The notes under the pieces were generated by a model. That model was not told where the DNA came from. It did not search any database and saw only the letters and a program-made list of their open reading frames with translations. The translations under genes were made by a program, and so were the position numbers. DNA of 62,650 nt, the filler included, from Hausera hauseri (Eukaryota), in the NCBI GenBank assembly GCA_046269625.1. It is 10 parts of 10 records of this genome, joined end to end, with 100 filler letters (N's around TTAATTAATTAA, not from the genome) between each part and the next. Parts side by side here need not be neighbours in the genome. Positions count along the whole stretch, not along the records: positions 22,167 to 28,224 come from JBJURY010146979.1; positions 28,325 to 33,489 come from JBJURY010317495.1; 8 more parts are not named here. The stretch is one strand, 5' to 3'. Below, in pieces: positions 2,869 through 47,633 of the stretch. Numbering within the stretch: the stretch's first letter is position 1; the number at the start of each line of letters is the position of its first letter.

Positions 2869-2879
2869 AGTGAACTGGA

Positions 2880-4200: not shown

Positions 4201-4699
4201 AAGTCCAACAAATATATTTTTCCCATACAACGTTGTACGCTTTATTCAAAGAAACAGATATCGATACGGGGACTGAGATGAAATCTCAATTTTACAAAGA
4301 TACGATTAAAGTAAGAAGTCTAGGGAAATTAACATCCAAACACGCACCAACAATCAGCGAATGATTACATGAAAATATTCTGAAATGTACCTTACCGACG
4401 ATCGATACAACGCGGTAACTTTATTCCCGTTTACATAACAATTCTAAACATCCATCTCAAATATGTGTGGCAAAGTCATTCACCAAATCAAACATACCTG
4501 TTGATTCATTCAAATACAATGTTCATGAACATCAAGAAGGATTGCCAGAGTAACATTTATCAAATTATTATACATCTACATATTGGTATTCGTTTATTTA
4601 TAATGCTAAACAAAGCTGGTAGTTTACATGAGTGCCATATCTCAGAACTATTATAGCTCGGATCACGACAGAGCTATCAATGAAAGAGCTATTGATGAT

Positions 4700-12999: not shown

Positions 13000-15900
13000 T
13001 GACAAATGCTATGTTTTTCGCTCTTGGTGTGTAGATGGGTGTTTCATAAACATAATATTGACTAAAGTCTTATGATCAGTTTGGATAACAAAACTGCGAG
13101 CTGTGAGAAGTGGGAGAAGTGTTTTAAGGCCAGAACTATCGCCAGTAGTTCTAGATCGAGTGTGGAATATCAATATTCTGGTGGTGATTATTTTCTAGAG
13201 AAAAATTCGAGTGGTTGGTTTTCGCCTTTGTATATCTGATGTAACACAACATCGACTGCGGTGGTTGAAGCGTCTGTGGTAAGAATAAGTTCAGCATCAG
13301 GTTTAGGAAATGCTAGAATTTCTACGGTTTTGAGACCTTTGCGCAGTTTATCAAACTTATCAACCAATTTAGGTTTCCATTGAATAGATTGATGCTTTTT
13401 TCTATTTCCTAAATGTGTGAAAGGTGCCGTGAGTTCCGAACAGTATGGAACATATTTGTGGACAAAGTGTAAAGTCCCTAAAAGCACCTCGTTTCTCTTG
13501 TGGTTCTTGGTAGTTGTGTGTTTTTAAGAGCTTCGACACGTTCTGACTGAGGAGAATGGTCATTTGCTGAAATGATGCGTCCGAGAAAGTTAATACAGTT
13601 TGGAAGAAGCTGCATTTTGCAAAATTAATCTGTAGATTATGGTGGTTAAGTCGTTGGAAAATAGAACAAACGTGTTCCTCGTGCTGCTTGGTTGAAGACG
13701 AAACGATTAAGATATCGTCAATGTATGGGTGTACGAAAGTGAAGTCTGAAAGAATAGAATCGATGTGACTTTGGAAGGTCTGCGCGGCGTTGCGTAAATT
13801 AAATGGCATATAAACGTATTCATACAGGCCGAAAGGTGTTGTAACAGCAGTTTCCTCGATGTCCTCAAGTGCTGCAGGAAGTTGATGATATGCCTTGGCT
13901 AAGTCTGTAGTTGAATATACCGTAGTAGGGTTGAGCCGGTGCAGGATATCCTTAATAAGTGGTAAAGGATATGCATCCATTATAGTTAAAGTGTTTAGCT
14001 GACGGTAATCACACCATGGTTGAAAAGATCCATCCTTTTTGAACAACGTGCAAAGGCAAAGACCACGATGGTACAGATCCGTGTACAATGCCGGAGCGTT
14101 CAAGGTCTACAAATTCCACTTCAACAGCATGTCTACGACGTGGTGACAATGGACGCACCTTTTGATGAATGGGTCTTTGGTGTTGCGTTATGATGTGGTG
14201 AAAAGTGCTGTTTGCAGGTGTGAAAGTTCGGTCCTTCTGGATTGAGCGAGGACATTAAGTGCGTATGTATTGCTGTAGACTTGCAGGCAATTGTGAGAGA
14301 CTGGGTGATGTTGGTGTTGAGTCAATATATGTAGTGACGAGTGATGTTTGCAAATTATTTGCTAGTATGAAATCAAGTGGAATTTTGTGTAAGATAGTAC
14401 CATTAAAAATAGTGTTTGAAGAGGTAATGTGGTCTAGTGAATTTACCGAACCAACAAATCGTAGCTGTCAAAACCATATCTCGACTGAATATTAATATTA
14501 TGATTAAAAAATTTACGGAACGAAAAATGATTGTTATAATATTTTGGGTTAGTTTTACGGTTTCTGAGTATAGACTTCCGTGTGAAGACCGTTTGCTTGT
14601 TAGCAGATATACTATTTATTTTCTTGTTAAAATATCCAGTGGTGTTACTTTTCAGACATCGTTGCTTGCAATTAACTAAAAGATTATAATGGGATAAGAA
14701 ATTGGAACCTAGGATTGCTGTGCGGACGTTAGCGATGGTAAGCGTCCAATGAAACGTTGAATCACATTTTTGTAAGGTGAACGATAATTTAGGTGTACTT
14801 GACATGTCAAGTGGTTGTCCTAAAGCTGTAAATAATGATTTAGTTTTGAATGGTGAATTTTGTACAGGGAACGTGAGTGGTAGAAAAGAAACCGCAGCTC
14901 CTGTGTCACTAAAAAAGTCTATGGATTGAGTTGTTGGTGTAGTTATCACAGACTTTAGTGTAAAGACTGCAAAAGAAGTGTGTCGGCAGTTAGTATTAGA
15001 GAAGTTGCCTTTGCCAGACTGCCGTGAGAACTGGGGGCGAAATTAGATTTTGGGATTGGTGAGTTCGAACGACTATTAATAGAGAAAATTGAACGTCTGT
15101 CGTTGGTGTGGTTAGTGTTGCTCTTATAGGTGCAACCTTAAAGATATTTCTGGGCGTGAAATACAAATTTAGCATGATAGATGCGAACAATATTGTCTGC
15201 ATGTAAATTTGGAGTGTAATATCTACACTCCAAAACGGCATTTATTAGCTTTATTATTAAATTTGCTATGATAATAGCACACAAAAGACCGTTCAGGCGA
15301 CGGTGACCGGTTTTTTGAAACAGAACGAACGCGGTTAAAATTAGGAACGCTTCGTCGCAGTAATGAAAGATCGTTCAACTTATTATTAATGTTATTTATC
15401 GTCTGTTGTAGGGCCGAATTTTCAGCGAGTATTTGGCTCAACTGTGGCTCTATTTTTGTATTGAGTTGATTGTCGCTTGTTGTGACTGCGGCCGATACGA
15501 TTGGTTGGGAATTCAACTGTAAAACTTCATGTGCATTATTAACCAATTCGCCTAATTTATCCAATACCGTGAATTCCTCAACAACGTTAAGAAGTGCCCT
15601 AATTTGCATAGACAACGAGTTTAAGAAATGTCGTCGCAGAATGTCTGAATTATGCTGCTTGGTTAAACCTAGTGTTTGCAAGTGGGTCAACGACGTGCGC
15701 AGGAATTCAGAAGGCTTTGCGTTCCCATTGCCTTATCGTTAAAGAAACGATGGATTATAGAGTCCATGGACGGCTCTGTAAGTTTTAAAACTGCATTGTA
15801 AAGCTGAGTATAATGATATTGATGGGATTGTGGATACAAGTTCTGATGTTGTTTGGCAGAAGGAATAGAAGATTATTAATCTTATCCAAAGAATCAGTAA

Positions 15901-16684
15901 TGTCACAGGATTGAAGCCATAGTTGGTGAAACTGCAACCATATTTTACTAGAATTTTGGTTATCAATAAAATATTCAGTACACTGAGAGGGATTAGACGG
16001 ATAAAAACCCGTTTGCTTTTGCAAAGGAGTCGAACAGAGGTTTTCAGGAGTTATCGACAGTTTAAGGCTAGAATGTTTGTTGAGGTAAATGATTGATTTA
16101 GGCTTAGCAGGATCGTCCGTAGTGTTAATGGTGGAAGAGAATTGCATTCCACCACGGATTCGAGAATTGATCTGAAAACAGAGGGAGAAAGGTGAAAAGG
16201 TGATGTCTTGAAAACTATTAAAAACGAAACCATTGTGAGTCAGATAGAAATCAAAGATATGGGTTATTATACGAATGTGGTCGTGTAAATGCGTTATATC
16301 TATATATTTTGTTATATTTAGAGTATGTATTAATTCATTATTTAAAAAACGGAAAATGTAAACTGGTGGTAGTAGGAAGCCGGGCAGAAAGTGTGGCATC
16401 CCCACGCATTGCTCGTCGTGCCATACGGCTGCCGGATGGACGGCCGGAGGCGTGGCCGTACCAAGACGTCGTCGAAATGTTGGAGTTGTAATGTGATGTC
16501 TGTCGGAGAATTCGACCGACGATGCTGCAGAAGAGATAGAAACATTGTCACATGGATCGATTACTCCAAAAGAAATTTGTAATCTATCAATAGTTTGATA
16601 AATGGGCTGTATGGAATTGAGATAGAAAATAAAATCCGTTGATAAAGTATAAAAGTAAATGTTCGGCACTGTAGTTTGTCTCAA
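13000..16684 (-). mobile_element. Ty3/Gypsy family A copy 2: Ubl-gag-PR-RT-partial RH, decayed
   Basis: Ubl ending SRIRGG (16148-16162). Gag homologous to copy 1. PR FFSDTGAAVSFLP. RT MPFNLRNAAQTFQ, PYIDDILI. RH LTTDAS. Truncated before the integrase. Confidence 0.92.
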
Positions 16685-16881
16685 TGATCGAATATTTTGA
16701 TGCTATTGTAGAACACTGGATGTACTTGAGACATATCTCACAACTTTCTGATTAATAAATTATGAAAATGTCATATCGTACNNNNNNNNNNNNNNNNNNN
16801 NNNNNNNNNNNNNNNNNNNNNNNNNTTAATTAATTAANNNNNNNNNNNNNNNNNNNNNNNNNNNNNNNNNNNNNNNNNNNN

Positions 16882-17880
16882 ATCATTTTATGATATAATT
16901 CCGTTATTCCGACTTGTCCTTTATAGTAGAAGTAATCGTCTTTATTTTTCAGGTAGTCCTCAATCCGAACATCCTGCGTTTCTAATTTGTAGGTTCTTGA
17001 GTTTATTTCCGTTTCGGCTACAAAGAACGCTTCGTAGTTTGCGGCGAACATTACCACATCGCAGCGAGTTATCATTTTTTTACAAATTTTAGTCCATATG
17101 GGTCAGAAATTAATATAGTAGTTGTAGGATGTTCCGATACATCTTCGCGTGTTCTTGAATTACTCTCCGATTTGTCTACATAACGTTTTCCCGTAGTTTC
17201 ATTAAACTTTAACTCTTTAATTTTGATAAAGTTACAGCTCCTTCCAGAGGGAGGTTCCCATATTATAACCGAACTTCTAAAAGAACAGGTTCCGTCTTGT
17301 AAATGACATTTCTGATTCTTAGTGTATAATTTAGTGACACTATGGAACATTACCTTTTGTGATCGCATTTCTGATTCATAGAAATCCATAACTACCACGT
17401 TTGATTCTAATCCTTTTCCGGTATCGTATTCTGCTCCATTACAATGTCCGGTACGCATATCCAGCCTTCCAGCTACTACTTTCTATGCTATGATTATTTT
17501 TCCTGGTTTCATTTCTAATTTCATACTGTCCCATTGTACTCTTCCGTTCTCTTTAGCTTGTTTACAGTGTTGGCGTTCTAAATTCATTGGAATCAGCGGA
17601 GTAGTTGGATTGATTATAGAGGAATGTCCATGTATTAGTCCACAGTGGAAGATACTACGCGATCATTTCAACATGCACTCCATTCCGTCTAATGATATCA
17701 ATTCTTGTTGTTGATACAGGAAGTAATTTTTTTCTCTTGTTTTCAATTTGTGTGGTCTGGCATCCTCGCATGTTTCCAGATCCATTAAAGAATATCTCTT
17801 TCCTAGTTTAAACTTATCGCAATCATAGACGGTTACCCCGATTATACGCTTGATTAGCATCATTAAGGTGAGCTAGCTAA
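16882..17880 (-). pseudogene. env: Chuvirus-like (class III, gB/G-type) envelope glycoprotein, N-terminal part
   Basis: Hydrophobic signal followed by VTVYDC..YSLMDLETC, CGLIHGHSSII and CHLQDGTC..SVIIW..CNF. Confidence 0.72.
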
Positions 17881-20800
17881 TTAGCCAATTCGACTCATTT
17901 TTCCGACCTCCCACGTCTGACGTCGTCAGGTTACGTAACATGTCGTCGAATTTATTGTTATTTCGTTTGTCTTCTTCCTTGTCAAACAGTCTCGCCCAAT
18001 TTACTTCGCAAGGCATTCTTCTTGCTGTTCTCCGTGCTAAGCTTATAGACCTATTAATTTCATTTTCTCGATTAGGATTTTGATAGCTAAGTATAGTAAC
18101 ACCTTTCTCAATTCTTTATTCGTGTTTTCTACCATGATCTTTTTGATTACTGATTCATCAGTTAGATTGCTTTTCGATAGTTTAAAACTCGAACTTCGCA
18201 TCATTTTGGCTGCATCGAAAATTATCTTTTCTTTATCATCTAACACCTCCCCTCGAAAACTAGAGTAATTCACAATTCGTATTAGATTTTTCATTAACTC
18301 GCCTAATTCCTCGTTATCTGGGCTAAGAGCCGGAATCGACATCTGTCTCAATTCTCTCATTAATTCTCCATTGTAATCCACTTCTTACTGCAGTATTCTG
18401 AGTCTGCCTACTGGGCGTTTCGGTCTTGGACCCTTAGTGATTGTTTCACTCAATGGTACTAAATTTATGTCGTACTGTTCCTTATATTCGTCCGTTTGTA
18501 AATACTCAAAATATAATGAGGCGTCTCGGACTCCCATGATTTGTCATACGCATTTTTACGTTTTGGCTTTGCGTGTAGCTTTATCTTTTGTCTGTTCGTT
18601 AGCTATTACTACCACTATCCGATTTCTTTCGTCAGGAATGATCCCGACGTCTATCAGTTGTTTGAGAGTATTTTACCTCTAAAATAAAATCTGTAATTTA
18701 AATCGTTCGTTCCACCATTGTTTATTAACCATTCTCTTACATCTTTTACGTAGGAATATGTAATCAACTCGAATTCCTTTTCGTCCATCCATTCGGAAGA
18801 CTTTAGCGTACATCCTTATCAAAAGTTTCGGCACCGTACTATAAATCGTGTTTTCGCTAGATAATTTAGTTAAAGTTGGAATAAGTTGTCGTAGTTTATT
18901 CTCGGTAATATTTACGTTAATTAATTCAATCAAATCCTTTTCAGCTAGCGATGAATCCAGTAGCATTTCCACATTAAATCTCCTGTCTTGAAGGTATGTT
19001 TATATTTCGTTTAGTTGTACTGGAGTCATAGGTTTTCCGGCAAATATTTCGTAGAAGTATGCATCCCATTCGGGTTCGTTTCCGACATATGGAAGTCGGT
19101 AGTCCACAAAGACCATATTGGCTCTTTAGATGTTCTCCCGAATTTCCTTTAATTTAGGTTGTATTTCTTTCATTTTCGAAGTTCGGAAACCTACTCCATT
19201 TCCGCAGGCGTACTGAATCATCTTCAATAATTCACCGAATTCGTTAGAGTCAATCAGTTCTTTTTGGTGATAATCTGTTAATTCAAAATCACGTCCTTTT
19301 GCCATCTTTGTACAAATTCTCGTTTATTATTAATCTCGGATTCGGTAAAAGCGTATCTGTTTCGATAGACTCCGAGCTCTTTTGTTATTTCGTCTAACCC
19401 CGTCTCTCTTTGTTTTGTCTTGATACATGTTTCTTCTACTTTTTGTATCTTGTGCATCAATTGCCTCATCTGCTTATTGCTGATTTCTGCCATTTCCACT
19501 AATAAATAGGCTAACTCATACAGTTCATTTATAATCTTTGAATCAGGGTCCATTGCATCCGATAATTTCTTTACGAACTTGTGTTCCAGGAAACTAAAAT
19601 GTGGGTCGTTTTTTATTTCTATCAACTTGGTATGGAAATTCTGGTCTGAACCGGCCATCCATTCTTGAGGTCTGTGCAAAAATTTTATCGCATCCGTTAG
19701 CGTATCTTGATGCCCCGGACAAATGTTCAGGATTTCAATGTCTTGTGCAGAAATTTCTTCGATTGGTTTTCCGGTTAAGTATTGAATCCTTTCTAGTCGG
19801 ACGATCCTTAACTTTGAATTTATATCATAAATCATACTCCGTTTCTCCGTGAAGTTCGTTTATTCAATTAATTTGTAGATTTTCTCCATCGTCGACGCTA
19901 GTCGTTCCTGTTCCATAAATTTTAGTTGTCGTAGCGCTTCGAATTGAGTTTGGATGTCTATTTCTATTCGCAACGTGGCTAAATTGTATGCACTTTTCCC
20001 TAGTTGCTTTTTCACCGTTGGGTTACTTTGCGGAAATTCTGTTTTACTGTCTTCTACCAATTTTGTCAGCCGCGTTACTAATTCGGACCATTCCGACAGT
20101 TGATTCGCGATTACTGGTTTTGCCATTGTAGCCTTATCTAGCATCTTATATGCATCTTCTAACTCATCATCTGGTCCTCTTAGGAAATTCATAATCCGGC
20201 CGATTTAACTAAACTCGTCTTTATACTCCTCCAATTCTACGATACAAGCCTTAATTACATTTTGGGTCTCCTCGTTGTTTGGGAACATAATTCGATTTTT
20301 CAGACCATAAATCTGTGCTCGTATTTCATTTTCTATTTTAATTCCATTTTCTAAATTCGTATATCGTCTAGGTAAGCAAAGGTAAGTTTAATCATCTCCA
20401 TTAAAGGGGAAATATCTACTATGTCTATACCCAATATTTCTATGTCGATATTACTTCGATTACTAACCGGTTTTTCTTTGAGCCGGTGAATCATTGCTAG
20501 GCAAACTTCATCCATCATACGTTCTAAATTACGGACTACTCTCTTCAATTTTGGGTTTTCTTCCAAAGTTGATAATAGCGTTTGAGCCTTGGTAATTTTT
20601 GCATCGACACTGTGTTCATTTTTACTCCATCCTTCCGAAAATTCTACCCCGCTTTTAATCCACGCTTCCAATTCCTGCTTCCACTTTAACAACGTTTCGG
20701 TCGATACCTCTTCGGGTTGTTTTATGTCAATTGCTTCCGCAAACTTTCCTTCGCTACGCAGTTTCAAACTTTTATATAACTTCTCAGCGAATTGTTGTTC

Positions 20801-22066
20801 TTTTCCGGATGTCTACTTGTTCGCAAATCTGTTTAAGCCTTTTTAAGTCAAACTGTAATATTTCCGGCCCATCACGTTTGTTTCTCAGTCTCCTTAGTTC
20901 ATTGGCATTTTTCCATAAATGTCGGACTTTCCACTTCTTGGGATCGAAATCGTCAATATTCGCTGTTTTTACCTCACTAATGGGAAGTGGGCAGATCTTG
21001 TTAATTTCGTTAATTGACTCTACCGACTCTGCTTTTCCGACGGTTGTAGGTGAACCAATTTCTGGTGTACTCAAATTAGGACCCGTGTCGCCTCCTACGA
21101 CGTTCGGGTTTTCCGTTTCTTCAGTTTTCTCTCTGGTTATTTTGGAACGTGAACGACTTCTTCGCTTCGTTTTTAGAGAAGGGCTACGACCTCTACTTTT
21201 CGTAATTTTAAGTATTAATGGCTCCATAAATTCCTTTTCTGCTGTATCTGCTGTATCATCCTCAGTGAGCTTAGCTACTTTTTCGACTGTAAACTCAGGC
21301 TCTGCGTCTAACTCGACTGCTGTCGATGGGCCTGGTTTTTTAGGTGGTTTATTGCTTATCGGAACACTCTTTTTCTGTGTCATATCACTTCCTTTAGGTG
21401 GTATCGCGTGTTCATATTTAGTTTCTGGTTCTGCTAAGCCATGGTACACTTCTAGTAATCTCAGCTTATCCCCGTATTCTCTTCTAGCCATCAGAATTTG
21501 TAGGTTAGTGGTATTCGGTTGAGCATCTAGGAATTTTCTCAAATTCTGTATATCGATGATAGTGCCTGTATCTCCACGAATGCCATACTTTGCTTCTGAA
21601 TTCTCATTGATTCTAATCGTACTAGTCTTATTTGGCTCAGTAAATGAGACACTACGTGCGTTTGGGCATGACTTTGAAATGTATCCTTCTTTGCCACAAG
21701 TAAAACAAACCAAATTACCATTTCTGCCGACTCTCTATCGACCGTCTTCGCTCATTGGTGACTTAGATTTATTTGCACTCTTATTATACTGTTTTGGCAA
21801 ACTTTGCATATTATCGGCAGTTCGTTTGTTATCATTATTTCGATTATAACCGTTTTGATTCTAGTAGTTTGGACCCTTATAATTTCCTTTATTTCTATCT
21901 TAGTCTGATCTGTTCGTATTCCCATAATTATTACCTCTGCTATTTCTGTAACCGCCATTATTATTTCTATTCCCATAATTTCTGTTACCTGTAAATCGTC
22001 TGTCGTCTCTTCCACAGTTATCATTGCGATTTTTATCATTGTGGTCATTCCGATCATTATTTCTGT
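16882..22066 (-). mobile_element. Env-bearing Gypsy family B copy 1 (partial): gag C-terminus, long ORF-X, glycoprotein N-terminal half
   Basis: N/R/G-rich gag tail and CFTCGKEG(Y)ISKSC knuckle. Collinear homology with 42600-47633. Confidence 0.85.
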
Positions 22067-22750
22067 NNNNNNNNNNNNNNNNNNNNNNNNNNNNNNNNNN
22101 NNNNNNNNNNTTAATTAATTAANNNNNNNNNNNNNNNNNNNNNNNNNNNNNNNNNNNNNNNNNNNNTCAGAGGTTCTTAATCGTCAATAAAAATTTTCTA
22201 GAGTTTTATATTTTTGTGGGTGGTTTTTTGTTAGTTACTACTGGTTTATATACCAGTTCCTCCTGTCAATTACCAAATTATTTCTCATAATTTTTAAATC
22301 GAAACTTATGTACAGATGCCACTTAATGAATTAATTTTCCAATTTTCAATTTATGTTTCAGAATTTTTTATATCAAAACTTATGTGTAAATGTCACTCAA
22401 AGGATTAATTTTTCGATTTCCAATTTCTACAATTATCGGTCTTTCAATTGTTAATGATTTTCGAATTTACTAACGTTTTTTCATTATTTTACTTATTTCC
22501 AACACGCAATCTGCTACTCAAATTTTTAGATCTGATTGACATATTTTCAATTTTCAAGCCATTCTATCAATCTAACCCTTAAAGTGAATGGCATATGTAA
22601 GTATACTCAAATCCTTAAACTGCTGGTCTCTGATTGCCATGTGTCTTAATCATTTCCCATTTTATTTTCGTCTCTCATTTATATTTCCAATTAAATTTCT
22701 AAATTATGCCTTATATTTCTTTATGTTCTCATTTATAAAATATGTTTTTA

Positions 22751-23051
22751 TGTTACATACTTATCACGGCCGCGAAATGTTTTGGCTAACAACGCAAATA
22801 CAATTAGCAGCAATAACAATAGGACACCCATCACAGGGGTTCAACAAAACAAAAAGTTGACAGAAAGTTTATTTATTTATACAATAATAAAATAACAATA
22901 TTTACAATTAATAATGTATTCTCTATCAGAGTTTCGGCAAGAGTTTGTATACACGATGTGTTCTCAATCAAAGTTTCGGCAAAAGTCTATATGCACGATC
23001 AAAGTTTTAACAAAGTTGAATATAGTAAAGAGGGCATAAGAAACCCTAACA
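22751..23051 (-). repeat. 3' LTR (301 bp) with TGTTA...TAACA ends
   Basis: On the minus strand it starts TGTTAGGG right after a PPT and ends TGTAACA. It contains TATAAATAAATAAA and a ~41-bp tandem duplication (22920-23000). Confidence 0.72.
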
Positions 23052-23065
23052 TTTCTCCCCCCTTT
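23052..23065 (-). promoter_or_regulatory. Polypurine tract AAAGGGGGGAGAAA
   Basis: All-purine run abutting the TG of the putative LTR. Confidence 0.75.
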
Positions 23066-23192
23066 GAAAAAGGATTCGGTCCTCCGGTCACTCTGAGTAC
23101 TGACATCGATAAAACTGAGATTTCTGGGTTTGATTGTCAGGGTAGCGTCATTCACCGGATTCATCCAGTGGCATAGTCTCTGAGTTCGGTTG

Positions 23193-25385
23193 TTATAGGT
23201 GTAGGAAAAGTGATAGTAGACGGATGGTTGATGGCAGTATGGGCATGAAATACCATTTTGGAAAAGTCATTCGAAGTGCATCGTTTGGGTCAATGGACTG
23301 AAGGAATTGGGAGCGAAGCTTATTGAAACATGTTGCACATAAACTGCGGTTGCATTGGAATTGGACCACTGTTATTCTTTCAGTGAGATATAGTACATTC
23401 ATAATTTGGGAGTTGGTCATAGAAAAAATTTTGTAGTGTTTCCCATAGATCAGGCGGGGCTAGGTCGGAAATGAGGTCAATTGGGAATTTATTCAAAGCC
23501 GAAAACCACTATTCTTGCAGGGATGATGGTAATTGAGGACTGTGAGAAATAGTTGGCGTAGGTGTTATTGAGGGTGTAGGTATCGGTAATTCAGGCAATG
23601 GTCTGATGATCTGCTCAGGTTGATAACGTGGGTGTGGTATTGAAGATAGTTGTCGTAGAAGAGACACAACATTTATATGGGGTAAAGGTACTTGAAAAGT
23701 AATTGGTGGTGGTCTAATTATTGTAGAAGGGCTAAATCTATGAATTGGAAATTCAATTCTAGCTGACGATTGCTGCTCTAGTCGGAAGTATCTCGTCGGA
23801 AGTAATTGAGGAATTGGCGTATTAATAACGGTGAGTAAAGCTCTTCTGGGATGATGGAAGTAGGAAGAAATGAATTGAGGACAGAAATAACATATACTAC
23901 AGATTAGATGACGATGATTGGATTCTAGTTGATAGCAATGAGAGCAGTACTCAGCATTACAACAACTAAATTGGTAGGCAGTTTTATTGGGCTTTTGACA
24001 TAAGCAACAGTTATGGAGTTGAAAATATGAGATGGCAAAAGGATTTGATACATCCCAAGTATAGTAAAAAGTGGCATGATCCGTAGGTTCAATGACGTCA
24101 AAGGTTTGGGCATCGAGTAATAATTGATCAGCGTCGGATGGGTATGCATCATGCCGAATGCAGTATTTGATCTCATGTACAAACAGGGCAATAGGGTGTA
24201 GGATGGGCTTGTGTTCGAATTTGATCTATACAAAATGAACAAACCATATGTAGACATGGCGTTAATCTGTACACTTCGCTGAGAATTACTCTGCAGAACA
24301 TGCATTCTGGAAGATCTAAAAATAAGTAGAAATAACTAAGATTTAACTCAATGACATTATGATTTACATTGTCAACATCTTCAATATACAGTGAATTTGA
24401 CAAAAGATTATAAAATTGTCTAAGTAAATGGGCTTGTACTAATGATGAAGTATATGTAGGGATAATGGTGGTATGTAGTAATTGTTCACTTAAACGAATT
24501 ATTAGCATTGGATCTGTTGAAACGTTTGCAGCGATAGGGTGGCGACTAAGATTGAAGAAACCATTAGTAATGGTAGCGGGTAATTTCAGTTAGCATAATA
24601 ATAAATCTAGTTGTGTTGTTATAATATATTTATGCTTTAACATATCTTGTATGAGAGGTAAGAAATCTTCATTGTCTATTTTATTCAGGGTTACATCATC
24701 TGTTATACCTGTAAAAGGTGTTCTCCAATCGATGACTTTATGTCGGAGGTACATTTGTTGCTGTAATAATATTTCGCCTTTGTAGTCTAATATGGCGATA
24801 TCTATAATATTTTGGTTGATGGTTGTCAAATTAGGTTGAGTGGAAACGTAATTAAATGCTACAAAGGTGAATAAAGGTTCTAAATCTGGTAGAGATATTC
24901 CTTTTGGTATTGAAGAGTATCCATTTACTGGTACAAGTGGTTTAGGTATATGAATTAATTGGTCATAGTCCTCATTACGGGTGTATATGTATTGGGCTTC
25001 GGTTACTTGAAGAAGAAACGGTGAAAAATAACAATTCAATAGGGGGAATTGTGATAATCACACTAAAATTATCAAGTAGTTCATAATTAATGTCAAAAAC
25101 AGGATCATTAAAATTGACATTGACATTTAACTTGCCACTGATAAGATGAATGGCAATAATATCACATTTTTCTGGTTGATCAGTAAGAATTAATTGAGAT
25201 AATGAATTGGTAACGCTAGTTAATGTTTGCTGTATACACATCTGTCTGGAATGAAGCTGCAATTTCTCAGATTTTAAATCATTTGGGATAGCTGTCTGAT
25301 TGGGAAACATATGATACAGTTGGTCTACACTCAGGCAGGACGCCACTGCGTCATAAAAATGTTGTGAATCAATATAAGGCTCCAT
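23193..25385 (-). pseudogene. Degenerate DEDDh (REX4/ISG20-like) exonuclease fold + RING-HC finger + Pro-rich tail, disrupted
   Basis: IAILDYKGEIL..KVIDWRTPFTGITDD, then in the same frame past one stop CMFC..LTPCLHMVCSFCI..CPVC. The Exo I DxE motif is absent. Confidence 0.65.
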
Positions 25386-25625
25386 TTTTAGTCTTAATAC
25401 AAAGCATGATGATAAAAATTTATTAACATTAGATGGATATGAACAAAACAGAATAACAATATAACTTTAAATGTAAACTATATACAGTGATTACACGACA
25501 TAGAATGTTAGAAGTCATATATATCAGAACAAATCAGTAAGCAGATGACAGAGATATTCAGAAACAAGGGTCATAACAAAATATTTACACACGAATAGAG
25601 GGTTAGTAAGGTATTCAATGTATGT

Positions 25626-28193
25626 TTATAACACGATTTTGCGGCGCATTATGGCCAACAGTCGTTCGCGTTCGAAGGAGCTGGTCATAGGATCGTGCAT
25701 CAGGATATCACTAATGGTCAAATTTCAATAATTATGTGTCTCTGGTCGAATATCTGGTCGTCGCATCAGGATGGAGACTGCCCCATAGGTTCGAGTTAAA
25801 AGCGCAGTTATAAGGGGAGTCTCTTCGTAGGATCCATGAGCATAGTTTACGTCAAATAAGTAGGTTCCATTATCAAATTTTTTATTTAGGAAGGTTTCTA
25901 ATAAGAGGAATCGTTTGAAAACTATTGCATGATGCAATGGTGTACTACGTAATTGAGCTTGGAAAATAGCTTGAAATACTTTGTTGTCGTAGGCATAATC
26001 GAATATCAGGATTGCTAAATTATGTCGACCGTGTCGTATAGCAAGTAGCAAAGGAATATCCCCGTCGATGTTAGGTATATGTAATGGTGCTTGTGATTGG
26101 ATAAGCATAAGTATGAAAAAATCGTGGCACTCACTCATGATGGCTAAGTGAATGATGGTATTTCCATTTGTGTCTTGGAATTTCAATGTTTCAGCAGCTT
26201 TATCGCCTAATTGGGTTATAGCATCCCTAGCTCTTTCTTCGTTTCCGAATGCTACCGCTAGCATTAATGGAGTTGTTCCGGCTTTATTGACTGTTGTATA
26301 TTCTACTGTATCTGTTGGTTCATCCGTACATCCCAACATATACCGTTCTGCTCTTGGAAGAATTTGTTCCTCATGAGTTTCAACATAGGGGTAATATTCT
26401 TCTTCTTTAATGGTCGATAACCATTTTTCGTTACCATAAATTTCAAGATCGTAATCTAGGTTGGTCAGGGGAATTTCGAATGGTCTAGTATAATTGAGTG
26501 TTGGTTCGCGATGGAATATGTTTCTTCTTCCACGTCTACGTTTATACATACATATAGTGATAATCGCCGCCACAATAAGTACAATACTAGTGGGTAACAC
26601 AATTACTATTAATAAGAGTTTATTGTAACTTGACTGGAGTCGTTGTAATGGTTCGATTGATGGTAACATAATATTCAATATTCCATTGTCCTTAGGAGAG
26701 TCAGTAGGTATTCTAAAAACAAATTTTCCTCTTTTCATTATCTCGTTGAGTGTAGGAAATTTGAATAATGAATTTACTCCCTTTCTGAGTGTAGTGACTT
26801 CGAATAGAGCAACTGTTTTTAGTTTTCGTAATGGGTCATAATGAAGCAACTGAATATGAGCTAAATAGGGATAACCTGATATCAATTGAGCACACTCAAC
26901 ATGTGTGTTAGTAATTAGAAAACAGGCGTCATTTGTATTTTCCAATGTAACAATGAAATCAGGGTTTGGCAAACTGAACATTATACGGTCAGATCTTACT
27001 TGTACATAAATGTCTAATGGTTTGAGAGGAATAATCTGGATGCGTTCTGGGGTTTGTCTTATTCCTGCTATTACGTAGGGAATTTGATTATGAACCGAAT
27101 AATGAAAACTGCTCAACCAAAAGGTATTTGGACAAGATGACTGTAGTTGTAGTGTAAGAAGTATCTGTCGATTATCTTGTTTCGTGCATGATATTGGAGG
27201 TCGGGGGCTTGTGACCTCTAAGGTATATAGTTCGTCAATATATCGTTTCGCAGCACATGATAAGGCGTAGCTGACTCGGCTGATTTGAGGTGCTACCACT
27301 AAAATTCCTTTTTCGTTAAATATCTTTGCTCCGATTCGTTTATTATCTTCGATTGAAGGAGCACATGGTATCATTGATGCTTTTCTTTCTATTCCGGTTA
27401 CTGTACGTCGCCATAAACCATTTACGACACGAAACATGGAGAATATTAATGAATATTCTTGGTCAGGTCGTGTAAATATGCAAGTCGATTGATTATGTTC
27501 TCGGGAATAGTGAATATTATTTTGTCCGAGAGTTGTATCAGCATATCGCGTGGTTATTTGCATTACTCTACCTTTTGGAATCTTCCTATCCCATTCGATT
27601 GGTAAACATGGTCGTTTATAGTCGGGTTGCCCTATAAACACTCTTTCTTCTAAGAACGATCTATCAATTTTGGTTAGCTCTTTCTGTTCGGGTGAATGGT
27701 CTGTTAAAGATAATGTAACCGTTTTTGGTCTTAACGGTATCATTATTTTGAATGTTCGATCTTCATGGAGGGGTGAATTCTTATCTTTCGACATGTGTAT
27801 CTGTACTGAATAGACGGTTCCGGGCATAACTTTACAACAATTCTCCCCATACGTGGATGTAGACGTACATAACATTTTTTCTTCCCTATATAGTGTTAAC
27901 GTACTCCAATTTTCGTTCACAGTTTTATTGTTATTTATCCCAATTCGAGGGGTGAATAATTTCAGCGATAAACACCTTCTCGTATGATTATATTGGATAT
28001 ACAGGTTTCCTGGGATAGTTTCTTGAATATCCCATGGTTCTATTTTTGGAATTCTTTTAAAATACTTCATGAAATCTGAAAATGTGTTTAGTGATGTCTG
28101 GTTAAGTAGATTTATTGTTTTTGGCACATTTGCGGCTGGCTGTGTAGATGAATCTGGTATACAACAAACCAATATACTCATTGGTAATAGCAT
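25626..28193 (-). CDS. Type I membrane protein: FN3-like ectodomain, TM helix, cytoplasmic ankyrin repeats (Notch-like architecture); intronless
   Basis: TM LLLIVIVLPTSIVLIVAAIITICM followed by KRRRGRR. About 5-6 ANK repeats (GTTPLMLAV, GNTIIHLAI, GDIPLLLAI, STPLHHAI, ETPLITAL). The frame is open to the contig edge, and after the TGA at 25725 it continues 33 codons to 25626. Confidence 0.8.
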
Positions 28194-28427
28194 TCGATGA
28201 GGTTTTAAATCATGTTTGATTCGTNNNNNNNNNNNNNNNNNNNNNNNNNNNNNNNNNNNNNNNNNNNNTTAATTAATTAANNNNNNNNNNNNNNNNNNNN
28301 NNNNNNNNNNNNNNNNNNNNNNNNAAAAGAAAAGCAACAGCAGCATCATCAGGAGCAGCAATAGCAAAAGGAACAGATACAACAGGAACCCGACATTAAT
28401 GTCAAGTATGATCTGAACAGATCGTAC

Positions 28428-31400
28428 GTGGATATAAAAGCAAACATGTCGGTGGCAAAAACAACAACGCAATTGAGCGATGTTCCGCATAATGTGCGCA
28501 ACTGGTTGGAATCAGAAGTGGAGAAATTCCAACACCACCAACACTACTGCAAAGTGCAATATTATGTACTTGCAGAATTTGAAAACGTTGAAGGTGACAG
28601 AAAACAATGGTACCTGTCACATCGAGCTGTACCATATGCAAATGATTTTATTGCCGACTTAGGCGAAAAGTTTGAGGAGAAAACCGCCAACTACACGGAA
28701 AAACGTAGTGGATGGCGATTTATACGAATTGTCACCCTCGGCTATATCATAACAAAGTCGAGTGACATAATATATTTGTCCGGGCGATCATTCATACCGA
28801 CACATGCAGCTCTGAAGCAGTCACTGGCGGTAGTGAATGTAAAAAATACTAACGATGAATGCTGTTTTCTTTACAGTATTCTGGCGGTATTAAAATATGA
28901 CGAAGTAGACAGACATAATGCATCTCGTCCAAAACAGTATCAGAAATATTTTTCCGAATTGGATTTCGATAAAATCTGGATGCCGATGAAACTGAAATCC
29001 ATTCCGGCTTTTGAACGGCGCAATCCGACACTGGAAATCAACGTGTTTCGGTACAGCACAATCGTAGAAATACCGGAGGATGAAGAAATTTACAAAAGTC
29101 CTCATGTGGATATAATCATTCGTAGTCAAAACCCAAATTGCCGTTCAGTAAATTTGTTGCTACTGGAACGAAAAGAAAAATACCATTACGTTGCAGTGAC
29201 AAATCTGGAAAGATTAATGAACACGAAGTATGACCATTTCCTCCAAAAACGGATACAGTGTAAATTGTGTCCTGTATGTCTTCATGGATTCAGGTCGGAA
29301 ACATGGGCGAAACATGTGACTTTGCGCAGACAAAATTCGTCAGAAACCAAAATGTATGTCATGCCCAAAAAACAGGAACTCAGGTTCACTGATGGGTCAA
29401 AAACAGACAATCCGGCATATGTAGTATATGCCGATATTGAAGCCGATCTACCACTGCACAACATATATGACTAAAAACATGTTCCAATCGCCGTCGGTAT
29501 GTTGGTTGTCCCAATAAAAGCCGCAGGTCAACTTCAATATTATGTTTTCCACGGATGGAATTGTGTAGGCGATTTCTTGCAGCAATTGGAAAAGATAGTG
29601 GAAATGGAAATCGCACTCTGGTACACTAGAAATAGCAATAAACCCTTGATGTTGACAGATGAAGATGAACGCCTGACGTTTGTAGTCACAGATGAATGTT
29701 TCCTGTGTCACAAAATATTACCATTAGGCAAAATGGAACGGCCTGTACCGGATCATGATCACTTTACTGGTCGATATCTCGGAGCAATATGTAATTCATG
29801 CAATTTGGCAAGGCGTATACGGCCATTCTTACGGGTGGTATTTTATAACTTCTGGGGTTATGATTAACACCATATTTTAAATTGGGCAATAAACGGATTT
29901 CCGCACTGGGAACTATCCATAATTTCGACTACGGCGGAGAAATATTTGTCACTGTCTGCTCGTATAAACCGTTTCCAGGTACGCTTCCCTGATTCATTGC
30001 AATTTTTCAATGAATCATTGGCAAAGCTGGCAAATGCCTTGCCAGATGTACCGTTAGCACTGATGCAGTTTCCCGCACATATTGCACGCATCAAAGGCAT
30101 ATTTCCATATGACTTTGCAACATCGTATGAGCTTCTCCGGACAGCAGAGGAACTACCGCCGCGATGGACAGGTATCGCAGAGGATGAATACCGAAAAGCA
30201 CAGAGGTGTTGGACAGAACTCGGTTGTAGAAACATGTTGGATTACATGCTCCAGTATCTTAAACTGGACATGTACTTATTAGCCGATGTGTTCCAAGCAT
30301 TTCGAGAGAAAGCGTTGGCTAATGATAGTATGGAGCCACTCAACTTTTATTCCATACCGGGGATGAGTTGGGCGTCAGCTCTAATGTCACTGGATCAAGA
30401 CATTGAGCTGCTTTAAGGCCCGGAAATTTACCGGCTGTTTGATGTTGGTATTGGCGGTGGCATGCATTTGTCAGCAATCATCACTTCAGTGCTACCGATA
30501 CCACATCACTGCTATATATTGATATTATTAACCTGTATGGTTGGGCGCTTTGCACCCCTTGCCGTACAGTTTATTCGAATGGGTTGTCGACAGACAAGAT
30601 CTGGAAGACATAATGGTTAACCTACCATGAGCAAACATGGCAAGCTCACTCGGATACCTGATGGAGGTCGATCTCGTGGTACCAAATAAGCTGAATGAGG
30701 TTTTGAATGATTTAACAGTCGCACCAATTAACCAATGTCCGCTAGGCTCAAAAGTGAAAAAACTGCTCATGACGCATGAACCGAAGCTGAATTACGTGGT
30801 CCATTGGCGTCTGCAGCACCTCTGTGTTCGCGTCACACAGCTGCATCGTTCAATCCAATTTGCTCAGGCTACCATATTCAAGGCGTACATAGATGGAAAT
30901 TCGGAGGAACGATCTGCAGCTTTCACAAAGTTCGAAAACGACTACTACAAGCTGAAAAACAATTCTCTGTACGGAGAATCTGAAAAGCGGCTCAATGTAA
31001 GCCTATGCAATAGCGAAAAGCGGTTGGTCACGTACATTAGCAAGGCACAGTTTAGGTGGTCAATGCACATTGCCGATGGATTAGTTGCGGTGCTGTTAAA
31101 CACAGAAGAAGTCGTTCTGGACAGGCCAAGTTACATCGGACAAGTGGTATTGGACCTGAGGAAGTTTCGGATGTATGAGCTACAATATCGCTATTTGGCA
31201 CGTTACCGGCAAATGTTTGACGGCTGTGACATTAGTATAATTGCCAGTTACACAGACAGTTTTTTACTGCGGCTGAAAAAAGTCAATCGCGAACAGCTAC
31301 TACAGCTAATGTCCAACTATCCACCGGATCATCCGTTGTACAGCCACGCGATCACTAACAAAATCGGCTGCTTCAAGGATGAAAGTGAAGGCAGGGTTCA

Positions 31401-31709
31401 GAATGCTAATGGATATTCCTACGCCCAAAGTGCTACACTCCTCTGAGGGAGTGTGGACCAAAAATGTGGGCAAAAGGAGTCCAGCTGAGTCAGACGGAAA
31501 TCGACCACTGTGATTATCGCCGTATATATGAAGAAGCGAGAGAAGAAGGACAATCAGTGGATGTTGTACCTCAAACAATCATCCGATCAATTGAACACCA
31601 TCTGTACGTGATAAGTAGTGCGAAAGTCGCTTTGTCATGTAACAATGATACGCGAAAGTGGATGGTGCAAAATAAGAGTTGGGCGTATGGACATTGGCGT
31701 CTGAAATAA
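28428..31709 (+). mobile_element. polB: Polinton/Maverick protein-primed family-B DNA polymerase, fragmented
   Basis: SGW..GRSFIP..VVNVKN..CFLYS; YADIEA; endonuclease VII insert DHDHFTG..CNSCN; KGIFPYD; YIDI.NLYGWA; KLKNNSLYG; (Y)TDS; YGHWRL end. Confidence 0.92.
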
Positions 31710-36416: not shown

Positions 36417-36759
36417 TTACATATATTGGCTTATAAGCCATTCTATACAGTAATTTCCACACAACTTAGTCAATGGATTTTGATACATAATGTTATTATA
36501 TAACACTGGAGTAGACATTAGTTCTATTTTCGACACCAAAGCAGCAGGGTAGTACATTCCCAGCGGGTCGAAGACACGAATAATATCTGATCTGACATCG
36601 ATAGCTATCCAATATTCACCTGGCAGATTCTCAGTATGAGTATTTACAACATATTCACCTTCTTTAAGAAAATCTGGCAACTGCTCCAACGAATAAAAAC
36701 CTCTAAATCGGTTTCCCAACTGTCTTTTCAGCTCACTATGTATCTAAAATGTACTACAT
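36417..36759 (-). CDS. Polinton adenain-like (C5) maturation protease; catalytic His replaced by Tyr
   Basis: YVVNT..PGE(Y)WIAI..FDPLG..YQNP..LCGNYC. Confidence 0.85.
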
Positions 36760-36833
36760 TAATTACGATATTATGATCAAAACAATAAATTACTTTATTT
36801 CACTGCCACAACCACTGCTGTATCTATAGTTGT

Positions 36834-38051
36834 TTATATGAATACTTGACCGATTTTACTTATTTGAATTTCCGAATCAAATAAGCCGTATGCAATTAAA
36901 GTTATTGGAACATCAGGGGCTTTGCTAAATCGTATATCTAGCTTCAAATTCCCTGTTTTTGGTAATTGTGGTTGTTCAATACAGAAATCCGGTGAAATGG
37001 ATATCGCGAATTAAAATCGCTGAGTGTTATACCATTATTTTGATTCGAATTTAGAAATCCTAAGTTTCGTATAATTGACTGCACACATGCTTCCGTGTAA
37101 TCATTCTTCTCAAAATCCGTAGTGTATGTTTCACGATAATCCATATTTCGTGTTAATGTTATAGATTTTACATTTTTGTGAACAAAAGCCGAACAATACT
37201 TCGAGTAATCACCATTGATTTGTAATGTTTCCATGAATGCTACCAGGACAAATTTCGGAAGTCTTTCATCGGAGAACAGATTGACCTTATATTCATACAC
37301 CGAGCCCTTTCCGACTGAATATGTGACAACTCTGGATTTCCGAATTGGGTGAGTTGCATTTTGCTTTTCAAGCCCTAATCGATGACCCACTAAAACTGAC
37401 TGTTCAACCTTTACACGTCGAACTATTAACTTGATTTCTTGTAAATATATTTCAAGGTTAATCTTTCTTATAGCAGGTTCCACATATTTTAGAATTACAT
37501 TACTTGGATTTCTTGTTAATTTTATATTAACATTAACACCAGGAATCAAATACTTTGGCTGATTAAAGAAATCAAAATTTAATGGACCACAGAGAAATAA
37601 TACTGGTTTTCTCAGTCCATTTCTTTCCATCTGCTTCTTTTCCCCATCCAATACACTGCAAAAATGTTGACTCTGTATCAGCACTGAAATTCAAACAACT
37701 TTCAATTACAGCTTTTACAGTATATTTATCATTTCTATCTTCCACCTTTATATTATTTAATGATAACACTGCCTCTTTGAATAATGTATACAGCAAGTAA
37801 TTACTTGATGTTACATCAATTCCTTCCGCTATATCTGTTCCATCAGCTTTTGTCACTTTGATTTTTACACACAGTAAAATATCATTTAAGTCCTAGTATT
37901 CTGTTTCCGGACCATTTATGTTAAATTCAATTGTATTAATATTGGAAATTGAATCTTTTGGATAAAATGTTTCAAATGTAGATGCATCTACAACAACTTG
38001 TGGTACTGCATGATCAAAAATGCACAGTTCCGATTTTGCACTAAATGCCAT
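36834..38051 (-). pseudogene. Polinton double-jelly-roll major capsid protein (PY), with stop and frameshifts
   Basis: MAFSAKSELCIF..FYP..IEFNI..EY*DL; L.FDFFNQPKYLIPGVNVNIKLTR; RLPKFVLVAF; GNLKLDIRF..LIAYG.FDSEIQI. Confidence 0.88.
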
Positions 38052-38464
38052 TATTCATCAAAAATGGTTACTTTATGGCATTTGTTTATAGTTGTTTCTT
38101 TCTTACGTTTATGTCCGCCAGAAGACCTGCTTAAATTAAACCTGATTAATCTACGCATGATTGGACTGGGACTGGGACTGCTTGATCGACTACTGCTTGA
38201 TAAACTACTGCTTATAGTAGGTCTATTTAAACTATGAAATCTAGACATATGACTTCCAGCAACACCAATTTGGTTCCTACGCCTTCTTCTAACACCACCA
38301 CCACCTTGATTATCAACAATCTCTTTCATTGTGTCAATAGCATGTTTCTTTATATCAGGTACTGTACTTAACATATTTTCTTTTATTGCTTCTTTTATAG
38401 GTTTCTTGTTAAATAATGCATCCTTTGCAGTTCGCATCGCAGCTGAACCTAAACTTTTAGCTAC
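38051..38464 (-). CDS. Polinton basic core/pVII-like protein, 5'-truncated
   Basis: NQGGGG followed by an Arg/Ser-rich tail. Lies directly upstream of MCP with a TAATG stop-start overlap. Confidence 0.6.
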   Translation of the reverse strand, partial: VAKSLGSAAMRTAKDALFNKKPIKEAIKENMLSTVPDIKKHAIDTMKEIVDNQGGGGVRRRRRNQIGVAGSHMSRFHSLNRPTISSSLSSSSRSSSPSPSPIMRRLIRFNLSRSSGGHKRKKETTINKCHKVTIFDE

Positions 38465-38564: not shown

Positions 38565-41500
38565 TCTTGTGGGTCGTAGGCAAATGTCCTACAATATCCA
38601 TAGACATTGCTTGCATTTGTCTATCGGGCACGTCGATAGGCGTAAGGTCGGCGATGTAGCTTTTCACCTTTCTTTGTTTGGTTGCACATACTTCGCAAGC
38701 GTTTACCCAATTTCTCACGTCGATACAAATGCTCGGCCAATAGTACTTATTTAATATCCTTTCCAATGTCTTTTTCCACGACATATGCCCAGCTAAGTAT
38801 AAATCATGCTCTGCCATTAGTACTTCTGTACTCAATCCTTTTGGTATGACTACCAGTTTTCGTCTTTTTCGTTCATAGTATAACACATTTTCCTGAATCC
38901 AATCTCCACCGACTCAGTATTTGTGACCACATCGTCGTAGGTGTTTCCGTAACTGATGACATCTTGGTGCCTTACTGATATTAACGAATTCAACAATTTG
39001 TTGTATAACGTTGTCTTTTCTATTTTGAACAGCAATCTTTAATGCCTTATCTAGTGTGAGAGTCCTTTGTCTTTCTACTAAATCTTTTAAGAATGTATTC
39101 CTCATTACTGTAACTGCGCTTGTTTTGATTTTAAGTCTCCATAATGCATCTGCATTGATGTGTTTATTTCCGGGCTTGTATTGGAATTCGATGTTGTAAC
39201 ATGAAATCTCTTCAATTCATCTGTTAAGTCTACAAGTTGGGTTATTCGCCCTACCTTTTAGGGTTGTAACTGCCTTGTGATCGGTAACGATTACAATCTT
39301 TTGTCGGGCGCTCCAACTCTTCATCTTCTTGTTTTTGGGCTAGTTCATATCCGATACCTTCTTTTCTGGCGTCCGTTTTGATTATGAACGGTAGGTTGAA
39401 GTCGGGATATTTTAAGACGGGTTCTTTTTCATTTCATCAAAAGCTTTTTGTTTGACATCGGTCATTTCCATTTGATCCCCTTTTTAAGCAAACAATACAG
39501 AGGTGCGTTTATTTTCGCATTGTCTGGCACGTAAGTAGCATAATACCCGCACAACCCTAACCAGTGTCTTAATTCTTTCTGATTTTGAGGCTCACACAAT
39601 CTGATATCTTACTCAATAATGATTTATCCGGCTTAGACCTTCCTTCTCCAAGTATACGTCCAAGGTATGATATAGCATTTTGAGCCCATTTGCACTTTTG
39701 GGATTCAGTTTCAATCCCTCTTACTCCAATCTCATGAGTGTACCTTCAATGTCCTTTAAATGATCCTCTTCCGTTTTCGACGCAATCATAATGTCGTCCA
39801 AGTAGGCGAACGCGTGTTCCAATCCCATTAGCATGTTATTCATCATGCGCGTAAAAATGGCTGGTCCGGGAGTTATTCCAAATGGCATAACATTAAATTC
39901 ATATATACCGTTGTGTGTCTTAAATGCCGCTTTGTAACGATCTTCCTCTTCTGTCTCTACCTGTCAATATCCAGATTGTAAATCAAGCGTGGTAAACCAT
40001 TTAGCACCCGAAATTCTGTCCAAAGCTTCCTTTATCGACGGTAATGAAAAAGAGTCCTTTATCATAAGTGTATTTAATGCTCTATAGTCGATACAAAATC
40101 TGTGCTTACTGGTACCTTTTTTTTAACCATGAGTCTCGGGGAATACCAAGATCTGTAGCTCAGTCTAATTATGTCGTCCTTTAGCATTCGTTCAACTTCT
40201 TTGGTTATCTCTGGCCTTAATGAGTGTGGAGGAGGATACCATTTCTGCATTTTATGATCCTCTAAGTCTATTTCGTCATTGGATCCAGGCTTTTTCTTAA
40301 GTGAAATTGTAAGTCTTAAAGTTTTAGCTCGGCCAATATCTTTTTCATCTCTTGTAATAATCGAACTATAACGACAAAGTAATTCGTAAAATCGACAATA
40401 TGATTCTGGTAAGAACTTAGTCTCCACGTGGGGCGGAAATTCGGCACCCTTATATGGTTTCTCCTCAATATTGATTGATGATACTCTATACGTGTGTACT
40501 AGAGTGGTATTGGCGTATAGTTTAATCGGAGTCGGTGCGTTATTTGCTATTCTGATTGGCACGCGGCCTGTTGATACTCTTGCCAAAACATTGCTGAGCA
40601 CGAGGTTTGGATCGAGCGATTCCTTTGGTTCAAAATGTATTGGCTGATCGTCATCCTGACGTATCTGAGCACATATAAGTATTACCGTTCTAGACGGTAT
40701 GTTTTCATCTACTGGGATCCACACTTCTCCAAATTTTCTGTCTTTAGTGGTTTTAACTCCTTTTATTGGGCCAAGTTCTATCAACTTGCTTGCAGTGATA
40801 TCGATTGCTATATTAGGTAGTTGTCTCAATAAGTCGCATCCTAATACCACATCATCCGTTAGTTGCTTCATTACTGAAAATTCATTGTGAAAAGATTGTC
40901 CCATTATGTGAATTTCTGGTTTCCATCGAAATTTACTCTTCGAGGATTGTCCGAAAGCTCCAATGTTTTCTAGGTCTGCCGTAGGAGGTGGATATAATTG
41001 TTTCCGTAAGAATTGTGGTATCAAATCATATTTTATCAGTGATATTTCAGATCCTGTATCTATTAGTGCATAAACCTCCCAATCGTCCAACTAAATCTTT
41101 GCGAAGGGCCTGCCTTCGATTACTGTACCGTAATAGCTTGGCGCTATCTTGGGTTGTCGTATCTTAGACACTTTGTAGCCGTTGATGGTAACGTCAGTGG
41201 TTTCAACTGGCTGATCGATTAACTGTCTTAGCTCTCCTATTGGGTATAGTTCGTTATTCGTACCATTCGCGTTTTCTACTCCTTGGTTTCTAACTGGCGG
41301 CTGAACATCTTGGTTTCGGAGATTGCGTGTCTCACAATTTCTCGTAAATAGTGACTGCGTTTCATTTGGTCTAGGTGCTCTAGGTGAATATATTATACCG
41401 TGATCGTCGACTGCTGAGCGACGGTGTGGGATAATCGTTCTCTCTGTTTCGTGGATCTTGCGCAATATCCCGTAGCGTTTTTTTCCTTCATATGGATTTT

Positions 41501-47500: not shown

Positions 47501-47633
47501 CCTTCTTGTCCACATGTGAAACAGACTAAATTGCCATTTCTTCTAACTCTTTGTCAGCCATCTTCATTTAATGGAGATTTAGATCTACTCGGATTTTTAT
47601 TGTAGGTTTGCTGCGGTGGAGCCTGTCTTGGGT
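38565..47633 (-). mobile_element. Env-bearing Gypsy family B copy 2: gag(CCHC)-ORF-X-env-PR-RT-RH-IN, decayed and cut by contig ends
   Basis: CFTCGQEGHIARSC (~47480-47525); glycoprotein 43620-41800; PR ALIDTGSEISLI; RT TLDLQSGY, VMPFG, AYLDD (~39795); RH end YKPGNKHINADAL; IN H..AGH..YYWP..CEVC, SMDIVGHLP. Confidence 0.92.
41800..43620 (-). pseudogene. env: Near-complete chuvirus-like class III envelope glycoprotein with C-terminal TM
   Basis: YD(C)..YSLMDLEMC; NDCKLDLEIMRTKLSL; GVFGRVTGGVLLMYEC..RCIQEL.V..VTPITRVL; TM FMIFGHI..FLAIYLLIQLVEAIIQAIING. Confidence 0.78.

Follow-up and report, generated by a model that had tools for sequence, protein, structure and literature searches.

Within a window of 62,650 nucleotides from the genome assembly of Hausera hauseri (GCA_046269625.1), which consists of ten contigs joined by N-linkers, a single 6-kb contig (22167-28224) carries three cargo genes in front of what appears to be the end of a long terminal repeat (LTR) retroelement. 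We refer to these genes as ORF-A, ORF-B and ORF-C (ORF, open reading frame); all three lie on the minus strand, and the contig end at 28224 is an assembly linker, not a biological end. Contig pieces from two public sequencing runs containing the stretch, X1 and X2, were aligned to it at 80-100% likeness; summed contig depth in these runs does not equal copy number, and X1 is possibly the source sample itself. Read in the sense direction, the locus comprises the following features.

25626..28223, minus strand: ORF-A, gene of a type-I membrane protein whose 5' part is cut off by the contig edge (first ATG at 28193); the family end lies at about 25626
26616..28223, minus strand: ORF-A ectodomain of at least 536 amino acids (aa), with 14 Cys and 5 N-glycosylation sequons; an orphan
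26547..26615, minus strand: single transmembrane (TM) helix of ORF-A, with a basic stop-transfer stretch and then a linker rich in Tyr behind it
25728..26297, minus strand: cytoplasmic ankyrin domain of ORF-A (Pfam Ank_2, E-value 1.5e-11)
24332..25385, minus strand: ORF-B, small beta-domain and predicted DEDDh-type pseudo-exonuclease, with relatives P0002-P0004
24316..24340, minus strand: splice-acceptor-like pyrimidine tract plus AG, between the ORF-B family end and the first RING Cys
23066..24315, minus strand: ORF-C region, with a RING at 24304-24179, a second RING-like Cys cluster at 24009-23890 and a Pro-rich stretch
23052..23065, minus strand: polypurine tract (PPT) of 14 nt, directly followed by TG; X1 depth 60,642-74,646 at 23057 and 23067
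22751..23051, minus strand: putative 3' LTR, TG..CA over 301 bp; its ends form a 5-bp inverted repeat, and a tandem repeat of 2 x 42 bp lies inside
22167..22750, no strand: AT-rich flank at about single-copy depth (7-28 in X1, 0 in X2)

The cargo region is far more abundant than its flank. X1 yielded 19,407 aligned pieces, among which 1,446 were at least 99% alike, 3,618 between 95 and 99%, 7,663 between 90 and 95% and 6,680 below 90%, and the summed depth over the genes was 1,421-36,953 against 7-28 over the flank, a median ratio of about 580. X2 contributed 2,084 pieces with a depth profile of the same shape, and the flank was absent from it. This roughly 580-fold step reveals a multi-copy repeat with a sharp edge and rules out a single-copy host gene, including for the ankyrin gene, whose depth exceeds that of the flank by hundreds-fold; one outcome that the original note had named as a refutation of its reading thus did not occur. 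Our data support a mobile repeat of high copy number, with the purine tract marking where this number drops. In the other direction, X1 depth is still 6,241 in the last bin at the contig edge, where 31 records overhang, so that the element extends past this edge.

The opposite end of the repeat has several features of an LTR element. The tract at 23065-23052 is the only run of at least 14 purines followed by TG on either strand of the window, an arrangement that shuffling of the contig produced 11 times in 1000. As originally described, it abuts the 301-bp TG..CA segment, inside which a tandem repeat (22914-22999) is also present; the ends of the segment form a 5-bp terminal inverted repeat. 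The CA end is weak by itself, as the identical pentamer is found again at distances of 603 and 823 nt from the tract. The TATA and polyadenylation signals that had also been listed did not survive as independent evidence, since the sole TATAAA overlaps an AATAAA pair at 22881-22873, and of 2000 shuffles 329 contained AATAAA and 76 contained both motifs. While the window holds no second copy of the segment, one X1 contig bears it with two short insertions, which makes a second LTR-like copy, and X2 contains part of it without the flank; the putative LTR thus appears to be repeated, though far less than the interior.

ORF-A is intronless and runs open from the contig edge over 832 codons (28223-25728). 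Its TM segment (aa 537-555, Kyte-Doolittle 3.13) lies in a region with weak matches to single-pass TM families, and 9 Tyr follow within aa 556-649. P0001, the sole relative found, is 80% identical over 203 aa and extends 33 aa further. The window frame past the ORF-A stop (25629-25724) fits the family profile (E-value 2.2e-8) and matches this extension, which indicates that ORF-A of this copy is prematurely terminated at 25727. The ectodomain had no matches among 4,705 candidates of 452-1,439 aa and none among 1.84 billion representatives, longer fused forms being outside both searches; it found none in Pfam and PHROG, and a single, non-significant one in the PDB (E-value 2.2). Its Atlas language-model features lie near fibronectin-III (FN3) and cytokine-receptor clusters (0.81-0.83), which is a lead only. 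FN3-like Tyr motifs occur at aa 134, 253 and 447, a count reached in 0 of 2000 shuffles by a post hoc pattern, which is modelled on FN3 and was shaped after viewing the ORF-A sequence. On these grounds the ectodomain possibly consists of FN3-like beta-sandwich repeats.

This protein had been described as a Notch-like TM-ankyrin receptor, and its topology bears out the second half of that name: with Notch receptors it shares a single-pass architecture and cytoplasmic ankyrins after a basic stop-transfer run. It differs from them in having neither EGF repeats nor LNR (no Pfam match in ORF-A, with the ectodomain covered from the contig edge onward), in its orphan ectodomain, in which no CxC occurs (14 Cys in 536 aa), and in its lack of a long C-terminal tail, P0001 ending 33 aa past the window stop. 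The RAM region of Notch bears a WxP motif, of which there is none in ORF-A. Matches of the ankyrin domain in the PDB are generic: NOMPC leads, Notch ties EHMT1, MIB1 and FAP120 within about 2 bits, and the last repeats match TRPC, not Notch. With a two-sequence ankyrin profile, Notch1 chains fill 5 of the first 11 PDB rows. We therefore rejected a Notch identity, given the missing EGF, LNR, WxP and long tail and the tied scores.

ORF-B of this copy is broken twice: the frame changes near 25002-25042, and a stop interrupts it at 24592. Its three intact relatives (3 matches among 271 candidates) measure 349-357 aa and are 56-66% identical to the window piece; all of them begin at a Met matching 25385 and terminate ahead of the RING, at the alignment column of 24335. 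The window frame continues past this family end, but within the next codon nearly all of the aligned depth differs in sequence from the window (3,617.7 of 3,631.2 in X1, 118.1 of 118.1 in X2). The shared end of all three relatives and this difference from the window suggest that the fusion of exonuclease and RING is private to this copy, and we discarded it as the state of the family. The exonuclease-RING gene first proposed is thus lost, its window version spanning three frames with stops, and so is half of the claim of intronless minus-strand genes: ORF-A has an open frame up to the stop at 25727, whereas the second supposed gene lies in pieces across three frames.

The C-terminal 180 aa of ORF-B are DEDDh-like according to Atlas (RNase_T 0.93, 177 shared features, RNase_T in 20 of 30 matches). 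Pfam RNase_T gave an E-value of 0.0048, below cut-off, and all four PDB profile matches are DEDD exonucleases (PolC, ISG20L2, ISG20 and SDN1), each of them weak (E-values 0.028-0.18). Upon alignment of ExoI and ExoII, non-acidic residues stand in place of both ExoI acids (Asp, Glu) and of the Asp of ExoII, and the ExoI replacement is common to all 4 family sequences. An active exonuclease was rejected on account of these replaced acids; judged by its residues, ORF-B is a conserved pseudonuclease. Its AlphaFold model is poor (predicted local distance difference test, pLDDT, 37.7), and a Foldseek search with it gave no match at an E-value of 0.001 or less. In a VIA-align comparison, aa 68-139 look cupin-like (Z of at most 6.1, root mean square deviation 2.9 over 60 residues), which is below a trustworthy level. 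The relatives of ORF-A and ORF-B, at 56-80% identity and with kept starts and ends, imply selection on these genes.

In the ORF-C region, the first RING is of the C3HC4 type and the only one to pass Pfam (PF00097, 24.5 bits, cut-off 21); it also aligns with the BRCA1 RING (E-value 0.077). The second RING-like cluster, the Pro-rich stretch and a scattered third Cys cluster with CxxC pairs (23339, 23245) lie in other frames, and the region is interrupted at 24175, 23511 and elsewhere; in this copy, all three genes are thus broken. Between the ORF-B family stop and the first RING Cys, the frame offers no ATG. The 6,058-nt sense strand holds three sites of pyrimidine tract plus AG like the one in this interval, by a threshold set after this one had been seen. 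With the ORF-B relatives ending before the RING, ORF-C is best described as a separate multi-RING gene, for one protein or several, that is probably spliced; splicing would be the simplest expression route, with stop-codon readthrough as the alternative.

We are fairly confident that the contig represents the 3' end of an LTR element. With somewhat less assurance, we propose that it is, more specifically, a decayed copy of a high-copy repeat, comprising the accessory genes at the 3' side, together with the 3' LTR, of a Ty3/gypsy-type element from an invertebrate, which the neighbouring contigs suggest is probably a flatworm. The tract, the TG..CA segment and the copy-number edge all point to an LTR retroelement end, as originally predicted, and the intronless, same-strand, tightly packed arrangement of the cargo genes was counted in the same direction. 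As first noted, neither gag nor pol was matched by any of the six ORFs scanned on the contig, where 5.2 kb of the element are seen; the accessory region alone measures at least 5.2 kb.

Two neighbouring contigs of the window carry elements that could supply the remainder. At 38565-47633 (minus strand) lies a decayed Ty3/gypsy element in which a CCHC knuckle is followed by the gene of a Monjiviricetes-type fusion glycoprotein and this in turn by protease, reverse transcriptase and integrase; env thus stands between gag and pol, as in Burro. A related decayed Ty3/gypsy element at 16882-22066 (minus strand) is 74-80% alike to it in three stretches. PMC13524379 reports the GAG-ENV-POL order for Platyhelminthes, Nematoda and Bryozoa, and PMC6431247 places env between gag and pol in planarian Burro, which makes these contigs attractive as partners. 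An element of this Burro-like order is a conceivable partner of the cargo region, to which we hold tentatively.

Several observations weigh against this interpretation. No contig joins the cargo region to pol or to a primer-binding site, and the sense strand of the cargo resembles the small gypsy elements of the first two contigs in 3-mer composition (correlation 0.79-0.84) more than the GAG-ENV-POL contigs (0.62-0.68). The ectodomain gave a negative internal-repeat test in 10 of 10 pairs, and the AlphaFold model of ORF-A is unusable (pLDDT 30) and does not provide its fold. A distant ORF-B homologue beside a Polinton polymerase, described below, implies that genes of this kind also occur outside LTR elements. 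A further objection concerns depth. LTRs are expected to be at least as abundant as the element interior, yet the putative LTR lies at about 1-3 times flank depth in X1 where the interior is hundreds-fold higher: depth falls from 60,642 at 23057 to 23.5 at 23018 and is 66 at 22899, a drop from about 60,000 within 40 bp of the PPT/LTR boundary (step at 23019-23056). The likeliest cause would be that LTR bodies differ by more than 20% between copies, and the fall at 23019-23056 may mark hypervariable LTR bodies behind a short common head.

Among other explanations, a non-autonomous cargo element, that is, an LTR unit with accessory genes only that lost gag and pol and is mobilised in trans, fares best and nonetheless appears distinctly unlikely. 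It would account for the missing gag and pol in the 5.2 kb seen and for locus scans that yielded no partner, but the element continues beyond the contig edge, and an autonomous element would more readily account for the intact, conserved ORFs of the relatives.

Slightly less probable still is a DNA-type element or endogenous virus, Polinton-like, with a coincidental purine tract and a 301-bp piece that is not its LTR. The collapse of copy number within 33 bp of the tract would be in line with such an origin, and ankyrin genes are common in large DNA viruses according to PMC6211748. A further argument comes from contig 10, where a 647-aa ORF at 59264-61204 (minus strand) contains a region distantly homologous to ORF-B and co-linear with it (24% across 239 columns; local scores of 67-96 compared to 45-48 in shuffles, reached by 0-1 of 300). 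The ORF also has an FN3-like motif and a hydrophobic segment close to its start. After one frame change, it runs at 58777-59265 (minus strand) into a Polinton-type pPolB N-terminal motif, which represents either shared cargo or a chimeric junction. The pairing recalls the pool of DEDDy genes shared by rotifer retroelements (PMC5408684), and it keeps the DNA-element explanation alive. RING genes, too, are common in large DNA viruses. Against this explanation stand the rarity by chance of a PPT abutting TG, the second LTR-like copy in X1 and a cargo composition unlike that of the PolB genes in the window (3-mer correlation 0.54-0.63).

An amplified host gene cluster, for instance a receptor family, beside an unrelated solo LTR would fit the near-flank depth of the LTR and the receptor-like topology, but is very improbable because three unrelated intronless genes are all raised in depth by hundreds-fold, up to a sharp edge at the tract, and no host-type ectodomain homologue was found among the 1.84 billion representatives. 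Equally remote is the first version of the cargo, a captured degenerate Notch serving as mimic together with an active exonuclease fused to an E3 RING, which has the TM and ankyrin topology and the Notch1 rows of the two-sequence profile in its favour and founders on the absent Notch hallmarks, the tied ankyrin scores, the ORF-B relatives that stop before the RING and the replaced catalytic acids.

Known elements offer partial parallels to the LTR element proposed here. Following PMC6431247, the giant planarian gypsy elements Burro/GYPSM1, of more than 20 kb, share with it thousands of copies, ankyrin and RING cargo and a theme of host signalling and ubiquitin, and share with the window contigs at 16882-22066 and 38565-47633 the env between gag and pol. 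They differ in that their domains lie mostly in one polyprotein, as opposed to three separate 3' ORFs here, and in that no membrane-anchored ankyrin protein or pseudonuclease is named for Burro in that review. No BIR, BCL2 or MATH cargo was matched in the 5 kb of the element on our contig. GAG-ENV-POL errantiviruses with gB-type ENV have the same gene order as the neighbouring contigs and are a possible partner; the main text of PMC13524379 contains no mention of ankyrin. The Juno/Vesta LTR elements of bdelloid rotifers likewise have an exonuclease ORF of DEDD type among their accessory genes at the 3' side, their ORF3 being DEDDy or TM and the DEDDy ORF being shared between unrelated element types (PMC5408684). 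Their DEDDy protein keeps its catalytic residues, which ORF-B lost in all 4 members, and ORF-B resembles the DEDDh of REX4, ISG20 and PolC and has an extra N-terminal beta-domain.

The remaining contigs of the window hold mostly decayed animal mobile DNA, namely gypsy elements, the two related env-type elements and Polinton-like genes. Small gypsy elements at 4610-5161 (plus strand) and 15788-16702 (minus strand) carry an ORF before gag with a ubiquitin-like RGG end, which was read by eye and has no Pfam match; their C-rich sense strand resembles that of the cargo. Decayed Polinton/adintovirus-like genes occupy 28365-31443, 36420-38464, 49047-51970 and 56485-59265; they are labelled PolB, and probable capsid and protease, and found no Pfam match. 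The likeness between the two final PolB copies is 76-95%. Between repeats at 2539-3488 (plus strand) lie remnants of a ROCO-type gene, with fragments of LRR and COR-B. In the flank of the element, an imperfect duplication at 22267-22426 (73-bp period, 78%) possibly belongs to another repeat. A tRNA gene search returned none.

The cargo of the proposed LTR element could act on its host in three ways. First, ORF-A would be a decoy or adaptor anchored in the membrane of the host cell, its putative beta-sandwich ectodomain binding a host ligand or receptor and its ankyrins holding a host signalling factor, such as a Rel/NF-kB-type or Notch-pathway partner, at the membrane. This decoy mechanism is a possibility about which we have some doubt. 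It has a flatworm precedent in the planarian nidovirus PSCNV, whose ankyrin module was proposed as an IkB mimic and, by prediction, ends up in one cleavage product together with a TM segment (PMC6211748); PSCNV is an RNA virus, and its ankyrin module is part of a polyprotein. Second, ORF-B may bind RNA or RNA 3' ends without cleaving them and thereby shield the RNA of the element. Maelstrom and EXD1 are inactive DEDD derivatives that retain RNA binding, as stated in PMC5408684. Third, ORF-C might be made from spliced RNA and target restriction factors of the host as an E3 ligase; E3 activity is what the RING-BIR cargo of Burro1 suggests, as cited in PMC13465017.

A more far-reaching picture would be an env-bearing LTR family with a signalling receptor of its own, a dead-nuclease RNA shield and spliced multi-RING ligases, which draws on a cargo pool shared with Polintons and has hypervariable LTRs; as a whole, we regard it as unlikely. 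Within that picture, a cytokine-receptor-like ectodomain joined to ankyrins could sense or intercept a host cue, which is speculative and just as doubtful.

Ankyrin, RING and DEDD cargo is already known from LTR elements of invertebrates, and for one planarian cargo a protective role in stem cells has been reported (Lee et al. 2026, as cited in PMC13465017). A separate, single-pass, receptor-like ankyrin gene on an LTR element did not surface in our literature search, and neither did a family-wide pseudonuclease; element tables in published supplements might already list such cargo. The decayed state of this copy and the missing junction of pol and cargo limit the value of the finding. With a dedicated surface protein that is not Env and has an ankyrin tail, the cargo toolkit would reach beyond the cell interior to the cell surface, while a conserved pseudonuclease and a probably spliced RING gene could provide handles on retroelement counter-defence against the RNA and protein defences of the host. 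Together, the three extra genes would enable the element to tamper with host signalling and, if the more far-reaching picture is true, would amount to an accessory kit in the style of complex retroviruses in an invertebrate retrotransposon.

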